Positions 10,482 to 23,795 of a stretch of DNA of 32,000 nucleotides are shown one piece after another. The stretch comes from Blochmannia endosymbiont of Camponotus modoc. Its GTDB lineage: Bacteria > Pseudomonadota > Gammaproteobacteria > Enterobacterales > Enterobacteriaceae. Within the stretch, counting starts at the first letter, position 1; every line of letters begins with the position of its first letter. A program made the position numbers and the translations under genes. Location of the stretch: the NCBI RefSeq assembly GCF_023585785.1, contig NZ_CP097765.1, positions 600,001 to 632,000 of the forward strand. The letters run 5' to 3'. The notes beneath the pieces were generated by a model. It was not told where the DNA came from. It did not search any database and saw nothing but the letters and a program-made list of their open reading frames with translations.

Positions 10482-10922
10482 TTATCTTGCCATATTATTT
10501 TTTTGTTGTATTTCAAGTAAATTGCATACTTCTCTAAAGCTTTTAAGTTGTACATCAGACAAAAGGGAAAATATGCGATCTAAAATGATGTTATGTGTAT
10601 CTTCAGCAATACGTAATTTATCACGTCCTTTTTCTGTAATATAAACGTATTTTACTCTACGATCTGTCAGACTTTGTTGTCGACGTAACATTTCATCTTT
10701 TTCTAATGCATCAAGAACTGTTACAACGGTTCTTGATGAAAACCCCATGTAATTTTTAATGTCTGTTGCGCTGGTTTTTCCGGTAGTAATAAGATGCAAG
10801 ATTTTCATTTTAGACATTGAAAGACCTTCATTAATTAATTGGCCATTTATTTCCTTGCGTAAACGATGATAAATACGAGATAAGGATTCTACCATGTTTG
10901 AAATATCTGTTAATCTATTCAT
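10482..10922 (-). CDS. MarR/SlyA-family winged-helix transcriptional regulator
   Basis: 146 aa. The central segment ...MSKMKILHLITTGKTSATDIKNYMGFSSRTVVTVLDALEKDEMLRRQQSLTDRRVKYVYITEKGRDKL has the MarR layout: an HTH, then a wing carrying the DRR motif, then a helix. I do not recognise a specific ortholog. It occupies the interval where E. coli K-12 has dinD-yicG-ligB. Confidence 0.75.
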   Translation of the reverse strand: MNRLTDISNMVESLSRIYHRLRKEINGQLINEGLSMSKMKILHLITTGKTSATDIKNYMGFSSRTVVTVLDALEKDEMLRRQQSLTDRRVKYVYITEKGRDKLRIAEDTHNIILDRIFSLLSDVQLKSFREVCNLLEIQQKNNMAR

Positions 10923-11920
10923 AATTATTTGTCTCTATATTGAATCAATAACGATAATAAGACTGTATTTGGCAGTATCAGTTAATAATAGTCTAAAAAT
11001 AGTAATTATTATTTTTTGAAGTATTGTTTATTAAGAATAATAACTTTTCAGACAATTGTTTATATCTGATAATTAATTATTTTTTTTAATTAACTATTGC
11101 AGCGTATACCTCCTAATTTATTGTAATTTTACTAAATTAATATTTTGGTTTTATTAAAAAATAGCAGACATTATTAATTCAGAATATATATATTTTAATA
11201 TTTAATTTGTGTTGTTTTACTATTTATATTTTATCGGAGTTTTTTTAAATTTGAAATATGACTATCGGAAAAATAAAACTTCTTATAGTTTTGTTAAAAA
11301 ATAATTTTTTTATATTTTATGATTTATTTTTAATATTAAAATTCTATATATCTGCAAATAAACAGATCCAAATCAAAAATACAACAATTTTATTATAAAA
11401 TATAAAATAATATTTTATATTTTTATGAAAATAAAAATAAAAAATTATATATTTATATTAAAATAATATTTTTTGTTGAATCATATATTCTCGTATACAT
11501 TCACATTTATTTATAAAAAATAATAATATTAAAGGATATATATCAGTTAATTTATAGTAAAATATTAACTATATAAATTTATATAACACTTAAATAAAAC
11601 GGATTTGAGTACAAAAATTATATTAAAAACTTTTTATTAAAAATAATAATATTAAAACCTAATTTTTTAATAAATGAATCTACTTCATATATATGCATGT
11701 ATATAATAGTTATTGTTTATATATGCATATGTCTCTGTAGTTAAAGTTTAAGTGCATTAAATTTCAGTATTCAATATTACGTTTAATTAGATTAGTTGAT
11801 TAAATGAAACATTATTTGATAAGATTATAATATAATTAAGAATTGCAAAAATTATCAGATTATATGACCAATACAGATTTTAAATATGAAAAGATTTTAT
11901 AGGTGGGTACTCTGATTATA

Positions 11921-13544: not shown

Positions 13545-13994
13545 TTACATCGAATGCCCAAAACCATGTGACCCACGTTTGGTAGGTATAAATGATTTAA
13601 CTACAGAAAACTTAACTTGAATTATTGGCATAAAAACTAATTGTGCTATTCGTTTCCCAGGATATACAATATACTTTTTTGGCCCACGATTCCATAAAGA
13701 TACTATCAATTCTCCTTGATAATCTGAATCAATTAATCCCACCAAATTTCCTAAAACAATACCATATTTGTGTCCTAAACCTGATCGAGGCAAAATAACA
13801 CCTGCTATTTTTTTATCAGAAATATGTATCGCAATACCGGTAGAAATTAAATGAGTTTTTCCAGGATAAATAGTCAAAGGTTTATCCAAACAAGCTGATA
13901 AATCTAATCCAGCAGATCCTAACGTAGCGTATTTTGGCAAATAAAAATGCTTATAAATACGATTATTAATAATTTTAACATTAATTATTTTCAT
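13545..13994 (-). CDS. dut: dUTP diphosphatase
   Basis: From ATG 13994 the product starts [13 protein letters not shown] (E. coli MMKKIDVKILDPRV). Motifs [33 protein letters not shown] and RGSHGFGHS are present. The start overlaps the coaBC stop by 14 nt. The tracked start at 14015 would add 7 unaligned residues. Confidence 0.93.
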
Positions 13995-15189
13995 TATAAC
14001 GATTAATAATTTCATTAATAAGTTGTTGTGCTAACAATTTTTTTTTTCTTAAAGGCAATATAACACTTCCTTTATTCCAAAATAGATATAAAGCATTATT
14101 ATCACTATTAAATCCTTGGTTCATACGAGAAATATTATTAGCACAAATTAAATCTAAATGTTTACTAATACGTTTATCTTGAGCATATTTTTTTATATTA
14201 TTAGTTTCAGCGGCAAATCCAACGACATAAGGACGATTTTCAATTAACGACCCTACTTCCGCTACGATATCGGGGTTTTTAATCATAATTATTTTTAAAG
14301 TATTTTTATTCTTTTTAATCTTTTCAAGAGAAACATGACAAATACGATAATCTGATACTGCTGCACAACCGATAAAAATTTGTTGATCACTAATGTCTCT
14401 CATAACTGCTTCTTGCATGTCTAACGCGGAAATAACATTAATACGTTGCACTCGAATAGGAGTACGTAAATTTACTGGACCTGCAATTAATGTAACTTTT
14501 GCTCCTTTATCTGCAGCGGCTTGGGCGATAGCAAATCCCATTTTTCCTGAACTATAATTAGTGAAAAAACGAACGGGATCTAAGGCTTCGTGCGTCGGAC
14601 CGGCAGTAATCATGATATTAAGATGACTTAAAGAACTATCATGAGAAAAGTAATGTTTTACGTATTCAGCAAGTACTTTGGGATCCGTCATGCGTCCATA
14701 ACCAATATCATTACAAGCTTGACATCCATAATCTGGTCCCCATATTAAAACCCCTCTTTTTCGTAGAATATCTAAATTTGTTTGAGTTGCAATAGCTTTA
14801 TACATTTGTTGATTCATGGATGGAGCTACAGCAATAGGAGCTGTTGTAGCTAAACATAAACTACATAATAAATCATTAGCTAATCCCACAGATAATCTAG
14901 CTAATAAATTGGCTGTAGCCGGAGCAAGTAAAACTAAATCAGCCCATTTAGCTAACTTTATATGAGGCATTGTAGTTTCTATTTGAGGGGTAAGAAAATT
15001 GTCCAAAACTGGATGACATGATATTGTTTGCAAACTTAAGGGGGTAACGAATTTTTTTGCAGATTTTGTCATGATCACTCTTACTTCTGAACCTTGTTCT
15101 TTTAAACATCGTACAAGATCTATAGTTTTATATGCCGCGATACCACCGCTTACTCCTAATATGATATGTTTATTAATTAATCCCGTCAT
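13981..15189 (-). CDS. coaBC: Bifunctional phosphopantothenoylcysteine decarboxylase / phosphopantothenate-cysteine ligase
   Basis: From ATG 15189 the product starts [21 protein letters not shown] (E. coli [20 protein letters not shown]). Both halves are conserved: PSMNQQMY and [10 protein letters not shown] in Coa[11 protein letters not shown] and CAAVSDYR in CoaB. The tracked start at 15201 is a GTG 4 codons upstream. The coaBC-dut order matches E. coli dfp-dut. Confidence 0.95.
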
Positions 15190-15201
15190 ATTATATTTCA
15201 C

Positions 15202-15292
15202 ATGATATTGAAGATGATTTAATTTTATTTATACTAACAAAAACTAACAGTTTTTGTTAGTATAAATAAAATTAAATCATCTTCAATATCAT
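15202..15292. repeat. Perfect inverted repeat with 44-bp arms and a 3-nt spacer (91-nt palindromic element)
   Basis: I checked it base by base. Positions 15202-15245 are the exact reverse complement of 15249-15292, giving 44/44 pairs with loop AAC at 15246-15248. The element lies in the divergent coaBC / rpmB spacer and starts 13 nt upstream of coaBC ATG 15189. Confidence 0.97.
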
Positions 15293-15652
15293 TGAATTTC
15301 AGAAAATCTGCAATTACATTGTGCGCAGCATAAAAATCTTATATAATATACCTTAGCCCATTATATATAAAGTAAAAATATATGGGAACATATATAAATA
15401 ATAATAAAAACAAAAATTTAACAACTTAAATCTATTATATTTAGACATATTTGGTGCTATATGAATGTTTAAAATTGTTAATTTTCTTGCGTTTAATAGT
15501 GAAAAATAAAACAACAAATAACAATTATAATATTTTTGGAAATCTTATATTAGGTATTTTAAATAATGTCAAATCTCATAGATTAAAAATCGGAATAAAC
15601 AAAAAATTGTTTTTATTGTTTTGATTATAAATAATTATTCAAACAAAAATTA

Positions 15653-15658
15653 GAGGAG
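15653..15658 (+). promoter_or_regulatory. Shine-Dalgarno sequence of rpmB
   Basis: GAGGAG lies 5 nt upstream of ATG 15664. Confidence 0.6.
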
Positions 15659-15663
15659 AACAT

Positions 15664-15894
15664 ATGGCGCGAGTGTGTCAAGTTACCGGAAAACGTCCTA
15701 TGAACGGAAACAAACGTTCTCACGCAATGAACGCAACGAAGCGTTGGTTTTCACCTAATATTCATTCTCATCGTTTCTGGGTAGCAAGTAAGAAACGCTT
15801 CGTTGCGTTACGATTATCTACTAAGGGGATAAAATTAATTGATAAGTTTGGAATTGAATATTTTTTCACAAAAATATATCCTAAAAATAAATAA
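15664..15894 (+). CDS. rpmB: 50S ribosomal protein L28
   Basis: 76 aa. [40 protein letters not shown] aligns with E. coli L28 [40 protein letters not shown]. Confidence 0.97.
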
Positions 15895-15914
15895 TACTCA
15901 TCGAGAATAATGTA

Positions 15915-16082
15915 ATGGCTAAAGAAAAACGAGAAATAATCCGTTTATTTTCTTCTTCTAAGAATGGACATTTTTATAGTACCACAAAAAACAAACGTAT
16001 TGGCTCTGAAAAAATGACATTAAAAAAATTTGATCCGTTTGCACGAAAACATGTAATATATACAGAAAGTAAGAATAGTTAA
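15915..16082 (+). CDS. rpmG: 50S ribosomal protein L33 (55 aa, below the ORF-track cutoff)
   Basis: Hand translation gives [55 protein letters not shown]. This aligns with E. coli L33 [55 protein letters not shown]. It starts 20 nt after rpmB, matching the rpmB-rpmG operon. Confidence 0.93.
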
Positions 16083-16109
16083 ATAAAGAAAAGATGCAAA
16101 TTCAACGGC

Positions 16110-16165
16110 ATACTACATAAGCCCCACAGCTCAATATGCATTGAGCTGTGGGGCTTATGTAGTAT
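16110..16165. terminator. Long perfect hairpin between convergent rpmG and coaD (candidate bidirectional terminator / RNA 3'-end stabiliser)
   Basis: Positions 16110-16135 pair perfectly with 16140-16165: 26 bp, 11 of them G:C, with loop ATGC. The hairpin starts 28 nt after the rpmG stop and ends 137 nt from the coaD stop. No canonical U-tract follows on either strand. Confidence 0.55.
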
Positions 16166-16301: not shown

Positions 16302-16817
16302 TTAGAGAAACGAAATGTTTTTGCTTTTTTTCTCAGTATTGCGCAGTTTTTCAATAACCTTCTCAGCGATAAAATTAGGTATAAAACGATCTATTCTCCC
16401 CCCATATTGAGCAATTTCTTTCACTAATTTAGAAGAAAGGCATGCCCATATATCTGTAGATATCATAAATATAGTCTCTACTTCATTAGAGAAGTAATTA
16501 TTAATTTTTGCAAGTTGTATTTCATATTCAAAGTCTGATCTAGTTCTGAGGCCACGAATTAAAATATTCACTTGTTTTTTTTTCATCACGTTTATAGTGA
16601 GGTCATTAAACCCAAACACTGTTACATGATCTAACGTTGCAGTTGCTTGCTTTGCAAATATTACGCGTTCTTCAAGACTAAACAAAGGATGTTTTTGCGA
16701 ATTTTCAGCTACCGCTAAAAATATTTTATCAAAAATTTTATGTGCTCTAATAATTATATCCAAATGCCCATAAGTTAATGGATCAAAAGTCCCTGGATAC
16801 ATAGCCTGAATTGTCAT
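16302..16817 (-). CDS. coaD: Phosphopantetheine adenylyltransferase
   Basis: 171 aa. YPGTFDPLTYGHLDII carries the nucleotidyltransferase HxGH motif, and RGLRTRSDFEYEIQLA and SSKLVKEIA are collinear with E. coli CoaD (159 aa). There is a roughly 12-aa lysine-rich C-terminal extension. Confidence 0.95.
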   Translation of the reverse strand: MTIQAMYPGTFDPLTYGHLDIIIRAHKIFDKIFLAVAENSQKHPLFSLEERVIFAKQATATLDHVTVFGFNDLTINVMKKKQVNILIRGLRTRSDFEYEIQLAKINNYFSNEVETIFMISTDIWACLSSKLVKEIAQYGGRIDRFIPNFIAEKVIEKLRNTEKKSKNISFL

Positions 16818-19988: not shown

Positions 19989-20016
19989 TTTATGCTGATA
20001 AAATTTTATCAGCATA
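19989..20016. repeat. 28-bp perfect palindrome (14-bp arms, no spacer)
   Basis: TTATGCTGATAAAA / TTTTATCAGCATAA; every position 19989-20002 pairs with 20016-20003. It sits in the 1.8-kb gene-free waaA / waaC spacer. Confidence 0.9.
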
Positions 20017-20619
20017 ATAAAACAGTCAATTTATTCGTAAAAAATGAATTTTTAGTAAAATTTCAACAATAAAATTAACAGTATCATGTATTTTAATTGT
20101 AATTTTTTCAAAAAAATAATAAAAATATATTTTTATTTAATCGAAAAATTAATATTTATTATTATTTGAAAGTTTTAATTTTCCTTAAATAATATTAAAT
20201 AGTTAAAATAACAAATACGCACAATGAAAATGTTCAAAAATTTAATATTTGAGAATTATATTCAAGTTTTATACCGATATAATTGTAAGAATATGCTAAT
20301 ACTAACATGATGAAGAAATTTTGGTGTTGTTTGTAAAACAAGCATTCATTCATTAATTAGATCTAATAATTTGAAGTAGTTTATAATTGAATGTTAAATG
20401 ATATTAATTTAAAAATATTGATATTCATCAATAAACAATATAATTTTTTTAGATATTATTCCTTTTATAAGAATACAATTATTTACTTTTAAACCATATA
20501 AACACTATCGTTCCTAACGGGTAGATATCTTTTTATTTATCAAAAAAAAATATCAATTTATAATTAAAGAATTAAAATTAATATAAGGTTTATATGAACA
20601 AGTTTAAGAAAAATGTTTT

Positions 20620-23764: not shown

Positions 23765-23795
23765 ATTTACTATATGCAGTATGCATATAGTAAAT
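23765..23795. repeat. 14-bp perfect inverted repeat with a 3-nt loop
   Basis: Positions 23765-23778 (ATTTACTATATGCA) pair with 23782-23795 (TGCATATAGTAAAT). It lies in the divergent hldD / yibN spacer, about 130 nt upstream of the hldD start. Confidence 0.85.

Follow-up and report, generated by a model that had tools for sequence, protein, structure and literature searches.

The 32,000-nucleotide (nt) stretch of Blochmannia DNA analysed here, referred to as the window, carries two long perfect inverted repeats on either side of the ribosomal-protein genes rpmB and rpmG. Inverted repeat 1 (IR1) is located between coaBC and rpmB, and inverted repeat 2 (IR2) between rpmG and coaD. Comparison with related genomes led us to the following account, to which we assign a probability of roughly 0.55: IR2 is the terminator of the rpmB-rpmG operon, and IR1 is a clade-specific palindrome that was shaped by template switching, is maintained by selection and, as we infer, forms a hairpin in the 5' leader of the coaBC-dut transcript. 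The two repeats are unrelated elements.

Two perfect inverted repeats beyond chance expectation

Both repeats were re-found with the perfect arms of 44 nt (IR1) and 26 nt (IR2) given in the original prediction, and the distances to rpmB and rpmG stated there hold as well. IR1 is separated from the rpmB start codon (15664) by 371 nt and from that of coaBC (15189, minus strand) by only 12 nt, while 27 nt lie between the rpmG stop codon (16082) and the start of IR2. The arms of IR1 are 100% complementary over 44 nt, so that the whole palindrome spans 91 bp, and those of IR2 (16110-16135 and 16140-16165) are 100% complementary over 26 nt. The next-best perfect arms in the window measure 18 nt (2167-2207) and 14 nt (19990-20017 and 23765-23795), as had also been noted before. 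A chance test was performed by 200 first-order Markov simulations of 32 kb, allowing loops of up to 12 nt. The longest simulated perfect arm was 9–15 nt with the composition of the whole window and 10–17 nt with a spacer-like composition (16% G+C), and a chance origin of IR1 and IR2 is excluded. RNA folding yielded -61.8 kcal/mol (z = -13.7) for IR1 and -46.5 kcal/mol (z = -9.1) for IR2. As both repeats are also found in genomes that were sequenced independently (B. pennsylvanica CP000016, B. chromaiodes CP003903, a JGI metagenome contig and several CP0977xx genomes), they are not an assembly artefact.

The comparative set comprised the homologous 13 kb of 11 related Blochmannia genomes or contigs, obtained from the members of the CoaBC cluster, and a neighbour-joining tree was built from coaBC, dut and waaA. 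CoaBC of the window is identical to URJ26203.1 and shares 98–99% identity with the B. pennsylvanica and B. chromaiodes proteins, which places the window, a Blochmannia genome, within the pennsylvanica/chromaiodes clade. Within the inner part of the tree, the window groups with CP097754 and then with CP097750, B. pennsylvanica pairs with B. chromaiodes, and CP097761 forms a further branch. CP097764 is sister to this pennsylvanica clade, followed by CP046534, a vicinus-like genome, CP097762 and SRR32934492.

IR2 is the predicted terminator of the rpmB-rpmG operon

Based on its sequence and its position, IR2 is the predicted Rho-independent (intrinsic) terminator of the rpmB-rpmG operon. The stem has a G+C content of 42% overall with a G+C-rich core, GCCCCACAGC, compared to 27% G+C in the window. 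Retention of such a G+C-rich stem in a genome of 27% G+C, at the end of an operon and between convergent genes, argues for an ordinary intrinsic terminator. The homologues in CP097750, B. pennsylvanica, B. chromaiodes and CP097764 consist of a G+C-rich stem followed by ATTTATTTT, ATTTAGTTT or TAGTTT, and the perfect stem of CP097761 is only 13 bp long with a weaker tail, ATGTATTTAGGTT. A terminator scan flagged the IR2 homologue in two loci, L086 and L001, with 0.2–0.4 expected by chance. According to this account, IR2 arose in the last ancestor shared by CP097764 with the pennsylvanica clade and has been maintained since then as a G+C-rich stem.

The stems vary between strains, as in CCCCACAGCTCAAT, CCACACAGCTCAAT, CCCTCCTACAGCTCAAT and CCCTGCACAGCCTCAA, and stay paired throughout. 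Perfect or near-perfect pairing with differing sequence was observed in 8 genomes, which corresponds to compensatory change, and even insertions are mirrored between the arms (T/A in CP097761, C/G in CP097764). Pair counts obtained with MAFFT/RNAalifold under-count this compensation because mirrored insertions and deletions are misaligned; therefore, the hairpins of the individual genomes were used instead.

The window strain differs from most relatives in its former T-tract, which now reads CTTATGTAGTAT and is the complement of the upstream flank ATACTACATAAG. At the same position CP097750 has TTTATTTATTTT, and the upstream flank ATACTACA-AAA is common to both strains. The upstream flank is largely ancestral and it is the T-tract that was rewritten, at 4–5 clustered positions that all create pairing. 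Through this rewriting, the perfect stem has grown from 17 to 26 bp in the window and to 30 bp in CP097754, which has the same extension and differs from the window by two further substitutions mirrored in both arms.

A sub-threshold Rfam match to GcvB was obtained at 16022-16163 on the minus strand (31.4 bits, gathering score 42). It uses IR2 as a hairpin and runs antisense to the 3' end of rpmG, and it is probably spurious.

Origin and history of IR1

The arms of IR1 are 37–45 nt long across seven genomes or contigs of the pennsylvanica clade, with 37–39 nt in the pennsylvanica/chromaiodes pair and 44–45 nt in the window group and CP097761. A homologous, degenerate IR1 occurs in CP046534 and the vicinus-like genome. 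There, about 85% of the distal arm is alignable, and the proximal arm reads TATAACACATAAAAC... as opposed to TATAAATAAAATTAAATC. In CP046534, perfect pairing is confined to the inner 15 bp, and no significant fold was obtained for the vicinus-like genome (z = 0.06). In CP097764, approximately 85–90 nt are missing at the IR1 site and a single TTTTGAAATGTAATATG is kept; the exact end-points are ambiguous. Copies of ATTTCA (TGAAAT on the coaBC strand) flank IR1 in the window (Table 1), and the loss in CP097764 is compatible with slippage excision between such short flanking direct repeats. The most economical history would, thus, be an older quasipalindrome that was perfected in the ancestor of the pennsylvanica/chromaiodes clade and excised in CP097764.

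Direct repeats at its borders and an 'empty site' in the sister lineage CP097764 are also what would be expected if a mobile or repetitive palindromic element of the MITE, REP or ERIC kind had inserted a copy upstream of coaBC, with TGAAAT as the target-site duplication. However, the arm sequence (allowing up to 3 mismatches) occurs only at the IR1 site in the 32-kb window, and likewise only there in each related 13-kb locus. Two exact 24-mer matches from metagenomes are single-arm chance matches in unrelated A+T-rich DNA. Two outgroups carry the homologous degenerate IR1 in place, so that the 'empty' site of CP097764 represents a loss, and no Rfam match at or above the gathering score was found. 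Hence, a mobile origin is hardly credible. Dispersed copies of IR1 were absent from the window, the related 13-kb loci and the metagenome scans, complete genomes not being part of this search. Likewise, Rfam 15 gave no match at gathering thresholds anywhere in the window; besides GcvB, only sub-threshold matches to generic long hairpins (plant microRNA precursors) were obtained.

Within the pennsylvanica clade, the two arms of IR1 have changed together. B. chromaiodes has an additional T in one arm and an additional A in the other, and CP097761 has a 1-nt deletion in both arms as well as a mirrored C>T/G>A change beside the loop. In coaBC orientation, the window shares the loop GTT with CP097754 and CP097750; B. 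pennsylvanica has AAC, B. chromaiodes AAT and CP097761 ACC. As GTT is the reverse complement of AAC, the loop has been flipped. The outer 8 nt of the distal arm read ATGATATT in the window group, where they are complementary to the invariant proximal flank, and ATATCATGT in B. pennsylvanica and B. chromaiodes. The only unmirrored substitutions in the clade are two in the distal arm of CP097750.

Both repeats appear to be shaped by template switching

The mirrored insertions, deletions and substitutions, the clustered substitutions that create pairing, the flipped loop and a palindrome that arose de novo in CP097761 all point to intrastrand template switching during replication. In this process, known as quasipalindrome 'correction', the nascent strand would copy one arm from the other. 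Template switching appears to be the best explanation of the mirrored, pairing-creating changes in both repeats. Imperfect precursors on which it might have acted are present, namely IR1 of CP046534 and the vicinus-like genome and, for IR2, the 17-bp stem of CP097750 with its A-rich 5' and T-rich 3' flanks. Quasipalindromes of E. coli have been reported to mutate towards perfection by the same route (PMC7202029).

The new palindrome of CP097761 is specific to this lineage. It has perfect arms of 16 nt (L090:5811-5847, corresponding to about 15345-15380 of the window) and is located inside a conserved promoter block; through a cluster of approximately 8 changes, one of its halves became complementary to the other. 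Apparent overwriting affected the proximal arm of IR1 in the clade ancestor and later the outer end of the distal arm, and it ran in the opposite direction in this new palindrome. A 'master-slave' model, in which the proximal arm is constrained and the distal arm passively copied, was dropped since the direction of overwriting is not constant. The direction of the replication fork as deduced from GC skew was considered as a test of polarity and abandoned, as gene orientation confounds the skew in a stretch of 32 kb.

A keyword search of the gene table in the supplement to Williams & Wernegreen 2010 (BMC Genomics 11:687; PMC3017870), which covers three sequenced Blochmannia, returned sbcB, rnc and rho, and entries for recA, sbcC and xseA/B were not found in the table text searched, which may be incomplete. 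If these genes are indeed missing, this would explain the tolerance of long palindromes.

IR1 is conserved beyond what copying between arms explains

Between the window and B. pennsylvanica, the core arms of IR1 display no differences at 72 positions, compared to 50 at 370 positions (13.5%) in the remaining spacer (p = 1.4e-4). Among six genomes, 4 of 70 arm columns are variable, compared to 29% of the spacer and 18% of coaBC third codon positions (p = 8e-6). In the region of the proximal arm, a single one of 55 substitution columns varies among the six genomes. Together with the 12-nt leader, this arm belongs to the best-conserved non-coding windows of 50 nt within the 13 kb (2 variable columns; median 14). 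Copying from arm to arm would by itself leave the substitution rate unlowered, yet the arms are strongly conserved; by this measure, IR1 is evidently under purifying selection in the pennsylvanica clade. IR2, by contrast, combines a fast turnover of its sequence with conserved pairing.

These data bear directly on the view that IR1 is a functionless by-product in a genome without SbcCD and RecA, in which template switching repeatedly perfects and extends quasipalindromes until slippage between short flanking direct repeats removes them, with only the sequence upstream of coaBC being functional. A full life cycle can in fact be seen, from degenerate (CP046534, vicinus-like) through perfect (pennsylvanica clade) to absent (CP097764; in the window, TGAAAT direct repeats flank IR1). 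Other lineages have perfect palindromes elsewhere in the same 13 kb, with arms of 37 nt (L088), 31 nt (L091) and 28 nt (L089), and coaBC remained intact in CP097764 after IR1 was lost. However, neutral copying does not lower the substitution rate, and the arms are 3–5 times less variable than the spacer and vary less than synonymous sites. This holds for the distal arm alone, in which 3 of 35 columns are variable compared to 29% in the spacer. In addition, the two unmirrored changes of CP097750 coexist, so that copying is too infrequent for homogenisation alone to explain the conservation. We therefore consider a functionless IR1 unlikely.

A putative leader hairpin of coaBC-dut

On our reading, IR1 would be transcribed in the 5' leader of coaBC-dut and form a 44-bp RNA hairpin that ends 12 nt before the AUG. 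Such a hairpin may act as a 5' stabiliser or as a target of RNase III; rnc is listed for B. pennsylvanicus in the gene table of PMC3017870. The best promoter-like match in the spacer, TTCCCA-17-TATAAT, is directed towards coaBC, and if this candidate is used, all of IR1 is part of the leader. If, instead, the promoter-like site inside the distal arm were used, the leader would contain one arm only. A leader hairpin is favoured since CP097764, lacking the palindrome, must transcribe coaBC from upstream of the IR1 site, and since selection on perfect pairing explains the conservation of both arms.

A candidate promoter for rpmB-rpmG, TTGTGC-17-TATAAT, was read from the sequence; it falls below the 4-of-6 rule that the scan applies to the -35 hexamer and was, therefore, not listed by it. 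Together with the coaBC-directed candidate, it makes up a conserved block at 15319-15388. The arrangement TTGnnn-17/18-TA(T/C)AAT recurs in the sequences of CP097762, CP097764 and the vicinus-like genome and appears, by reading, to be conserved in all lineages. It was also kept in CP097754 despite a deletion of 237 nt between promoter and rpmB.

This deletion (approximately 15398-15634 of the window; L093:5759-6000; coordinates approximate) occurred between 10-nt direct repeats, ATTATTTATA, and is by all appearances a textbook slippage deletion. As a result, the rpmB-coaBC spacer of CP097754, a strain nearly identical to that of the window, has 241 nt compared to about 478 nt elsewhere, and only the conserved promoter block and IR1 are left upstream of rpmB. 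Most of the 'radC-sized' spacer is, thus, dispensable.

IR1 might alternatively act through its DNA sequence, either as a pair of face-to-face sigma-70 promoters, one directed to coaBC and one towards rpmB, or as a symmetric protein-binding or cruciform site that controls the divergent promoters of coaBC and rpmBG. Each arm contains a promoter-like site, and the two sites are mirror images facing each other (Table 1). Variation between strains falls in the loop, which would be the region of the start sites, at positions beyond the -35 hexamer and in single-nucleotide length differences of the spacer; the hexamers are kept. The single change that breaks the arm symmetry in CP097750 gives the site directed to coaBC the consensus TATAAT in place of TATACT, and strong conservation of the sequence, not only of the pairing, fits a role at this level. 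Then again, such promoter-like matches occur at chance frequency in this A+T-rich DNA, their spacing ranges from 15 to 17 between strains, and the coaBC-directed -35 hexamer is only GTGAAG in B. pennsylvanica and B. chromaiodes. A promoter does not need 44 nt of perfect complementarity, and CP097764 expresses the same genes without IR1. Furthermore, two promoters facing each other at a distance of about 10 nt would be mutually exclusive, which offers no apparent advantage. Taken together, a role of this kind is decidedly unlikely, and the leader hairpin remains our preferred reading of IR1.

Several observations weigh against the account as a whole. The IR2 of the window is without a canonical U-tract following its 26-bp stem and was not flagged by the terminator scan; termination in this strain would presumably depend on the inner stem of 17 bp and the CUUAUGU behind it. 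Mirrored changes could likewise have come about by stepwise compensatory mutation under selection. Promoter-like sites in the A+T-rich spacer region number 8, compared to 9.3 in shuffled sequences. Selection on an RNA stem alone is not expected to conserve the sequence as strongly as observed for IR1, and IR2, a purely structural element, changes quickly by comparison; this hints at a sequence-specific role of IR1 at the DNA level. Finally, the long hairpin of IR1 is confined to one clade and was lost in CP097764 without visible harm, so that any function would be young and dispensable. With coaBC intact in this sister lineage, the palindrome is not essential.

The repeats are not connected with the loss of radC or mutM

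The original prediction offered, as one possibility, that the repeats are scars or agents of a hairpin-mediated or template-switch deletion that removed radC and mutM. The gene order in Salmonella, coaD / mutM-rpmG-rpmB-radC / coaBC, is of the E. coli type. It was checked and confirms that the repeats occupy the two spacers in which mutM and radC stand in these free-living relatives, which is the point in favour of the proposal. However, gene calls revealed that both genes are absent from the locus in 11 of 11 related Blochmannia genomes, irrespective of the repeats. Of the genomes compared, 8, the window among them, carry IR2, and 4 outgroups lack it. For IR1, 7 genomes have a perfect or nearly perfect form and 2 outgroups a degenerate one, and the palindrome is missing in CP097764 and 2 deeper lineages. 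More specifically, both repeats are lacking in CP097762 and SRR32934492, a degenerate IR1 without IR2 is found in CP046534 and the vicinus-like genome, and CP097764 has IR2 and no IR1. The distribution of the repeats on the tree, set against the universal absence of the genes, indicates that both repeats are younger than the losses of radC and mutM.

Further evidence points in the same direction. According to the supplement of PMC3017870, the locus is arranged as kdtA-(coaD)-rpmG-rpmB-(dfp)-dut in B. floridanus, B. vafer and B. pennsylvanicus, with neither radC nor mutM among these genes, so that B. floridanus and B. vafer are without the two genes here as well. A tblastn search of the spacers with Salmonella RadC and MutM revealed no remnants of either gene, only noise (E >= 1, inconsistent strands). 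IR1 is located at the coaBC end of its spacer, of which 237 nt can be deleted independently. Relatives without radC and mutM lack one or both repeats, a finding that the original prediction itself had named as its refutation, and the deletion-scar reading is thereby refuted.

Nor are the palindromes peculiar to these junctions: long perfect palindromes are found in Blochmannia spacers in general (PMC3017870), including those of other lineages within the same 13 kb, and are a general property of these genomes rather than of deletion junctions. That the repeats bracket rpmB-rpmG is a coincidence, as IR1 belongs to coaBC. Two further suggestions survived in part. Template switching appears to act at this locus, building and perfecting palindromes, but not deleting genes. 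Insulation of the operon applies to IR2, which separates the convergent rpmG and coaD, but only in the sense of an ordinary terminator. We concluded that neither repeat is connected with the loss of radC or mutM. An attractive but mistaken connection between palindromes and the loss of genes from reduced genomes is thereby discarded.

Gene neighbourhood

A hidden Markov model search yielded the gene order yicC, dut, coaBC (minus strand) / rpmB, rpmG (plus strand) / coaD, waaA (minus strand); coordinates are summarised in Table 1. In CP097764, the lineage that is also without IR1, coaD was called as two overlapping open reading frames of 82 and 95 amino acids (L088:4472-5004), which suggests a frameshift or pseudogenisation. 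The supplement of PMC3017870 lists neither coaD nor coaBC (dfp) at this locus for B. floridanus and B. vafer, and both for B. pennsylvanicus. This gap in the gene table indicates that the coenzyme A genes flanking rpmB-rpmG are being lost in parts of the genus. Inside rpmB, at approximately 15730-15809 (L001:5377-5456), a 16-nt inverted repeat, AACGCAACGAAGCGTT / AACGCTTCGTTGCGTT, occurs with its copies 48 nt apart; it is kept in relatives, and one copy was flagged as terminator-like by the scan.

Table 1. Positions of the repeats, genes and candidate signals in the window.
Feature	Position	Strand	Remarks
IR1, proximal (coaBC-side) arm	15202..15245		44 nt, perfect complement of 15249-15292
IR1, loop	15246..15248		3 nt; AAC on + strand, GTT in coaBC orientation
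IR1, distal arm	15249..15292		44 nt
ATTTCA direct repeat flanking IR1	15195..15200		copy 1; TGAAAT on coaBC strand
ATTTCA direct repeat flanking IR1	15296..15301		copy 2
Promoter-like site in IR1 arm, TTGAAG-16-TATACT	15208-15235	+	consensus match only; faces its mirror image
Promoter-like site in IR1 arm, TTGAAG-16-TATACT	15286-15259	-	consensus match only; reads TATAAT in CP097750
Candidate rpmBG promoter, TTGTGC-17-TATAAT	15319..15347	+	read from sequence; below the 4-of-6 rule for -35
Candidate coaBC promoter, TTCCCA-17-TATAAT	15360..15388	-	best promoter-like match in spacer, 10/12
IR2	16110..16165	+	26-bp stem, 4-nt loop; between convergent rpmG and coaD
Former T-tract of terminator	16154..16165	+	overwritten to CTTATGTAGTAT, complement of 16110-16121 (ATACTACATAAG)
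coaBC	13981..15189	-	402 amino acids; TIGR00521, 2.5e-144; overlaps dut (13545-14015)
rpmB	15664-15894	+	TIGR00009, L28, 4e-25
rpmG	15915-16082	+	TIGR01023, L33, 2e-19
coaD	16302..16817	-	TIGR01510, 5.9e-54; convergent with rpmG

Other palindromes of the window and of Blochmannia

Long palindromes have been described for Blochmannia by Williams & Wernegreen (PMC3017870), who counted 6 in B. pennsylvanicus (62–78 bp), 20 in B. floridanus and 10 in B. vafer, using arms of at least 30 bp, a gap of at most 20 and at most 3 mismatches. That paper describes almost all of these as intergenic, argues that they would decay if selection did not maintain them, and proposes that they function in transcription or in the stability of mRNA. 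With arms of 44 nt, a gap of 3 nt, no mismatches and an intergenic location between coaBC and rpmB, IR1 falls within this definition, and the six palindromes counted in B. pennsylvanicus probably include its version of IR1 (37+3+37 = 77 bp).

Additional palindromes were observed in the window and its relatives. At 19990-20017, in the 1.8-kb spacer between waaA and rfaC, a loopless perfect palindrome of 28 bp is formed by 14-nt arms (TTATGCTGATAAAA/TTTTATCAGCATAA). The B. chromaiodes version (L086:1050-1083) has 16-nt arms of differing sequence, TTTATACTGTCAATAA, and that of B. pennsylvanica is imperfect; this palindrome seems to behave concertedly like IR1 and IR2. Between yicC and a gene of the MarR family (10482-10922), approximately 700 nt of A+T-rich non-coding DNA (about 11000-11700) are unusually conserved in the pennsylvanica clade, with several 50-nt windows of 1–5 variable columns compared to a median of 14, and contain many imperfect inverted repeats. 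The same spacer contains perfect palindromes with arms of 37 nt in CP097764 (L088:9558-9640) and 31 nt in CP046534 (L091:9539-9604). The open reading frame 446-1909 is followed, about 260 nt downstream and within a spacer, by the 18-nt-arm repeat at 2167-2207 (AAAAATATCTATCTATAT), which is outside the region covered by the related loci.

Discussion

The comparative evidence that palindromes are perfected and extended by templated copying under selection is modestly new. Two small, clean natural examples are provided: a terminator U-tract overwritten by the extension of a palindrome, and palindrome arms that co-evolve through mirrored insertions and deletions and a flipped loop and are more conserved than synonymous sites. 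Both bear on the persistence of long A+T-rich palindromes in fast-evolving, deletion-prone genomes, an open remark in the Blochmannia literature, for which our data suggest templated self-correction together with selection as an answer. A more general view, possible though somewhat unlikely, would be that the long intergenic palindromes of Blochmannia are self-correcting elements under selection, with IR1 as a young regulatory hairpin (RNA or cruciform) of coaBC-dut. If true, hairpin-templated copying would result in concerted evolution without recombination in a genome reported to be without recA and sbcCD, and structured elements would be created, extended and re-perfected faster than by point mutation. 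The practical impact is modest.

In E. coli, radC, rpmB, rpmG and mutM are co-transcribed. Thus, the operon of E. coli runs on into mutM, whereas that of Blochmannia ends at rpmG. Located as a stem-loop just past the last stop codon, the predicted terminator IR2 resembles the terminators of ribosomal-protein operons and the bidirectional terminators between convergent genes. In most strains, it also shares the T-rich tail, the A-rich upstream flank and the compensatory pairing of intrinsic terminators. In the window strain, however, the T-tract has been turned into part of a 26-bp stem and no run of U follows, unlike in intrinsic terminators.

Hairpins in 5' leaders are known to govern the decay and processing of mRNA, as exemplified by ompA-type stem-loops and by the RNase III sites in the pnp and rnc leaders. 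IR1 would be similar in that a long stem is predicted just upstream of the first start codon of an operon in an organism that encodes RNase III. It differs in that its predicted perfect, A+U-rich stem of 44 bp is far longer and shares no sequence similarity with these leaders.

Concerted evolution by conversion from arm to arm occurs in the inverted repeats of plastids and in the palindromes of the Y chromosome. As in these systems, the arms of IR1 are identical within a lineage and diverge between lineages. Unlike them, they comprise 44 nt and not kilobases and are likely the product of template switching during replication and not of recombinational gene conversion.

The closest likeness is to quasipalindrome template switching as studied by Ripley and by the Lovett laboratory (PMC7202029), in which multi-base changes, clustered substitutions and mirrored insertions and deletions are likewise templated by the other arm. 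The events described there for E. coli are rare mutations in reporter genes, whereas those of Blochmannia would be fixed events in the natural spacers of an endosymbiont, and the palindromes concerned are several times longer than the E. coli cases. Compared to the Blochmannia palindromes of PMC3017870, the IR1 of the window is, at 91 bp, longer than any reported there for B. pennsylvanicus. The text of that paper, as far as examined, gives counts only, without positions, comparison of strains, concerted evolution of arms or template switching, which are the aspects that the present comparison of IR1 and IR2 provides.

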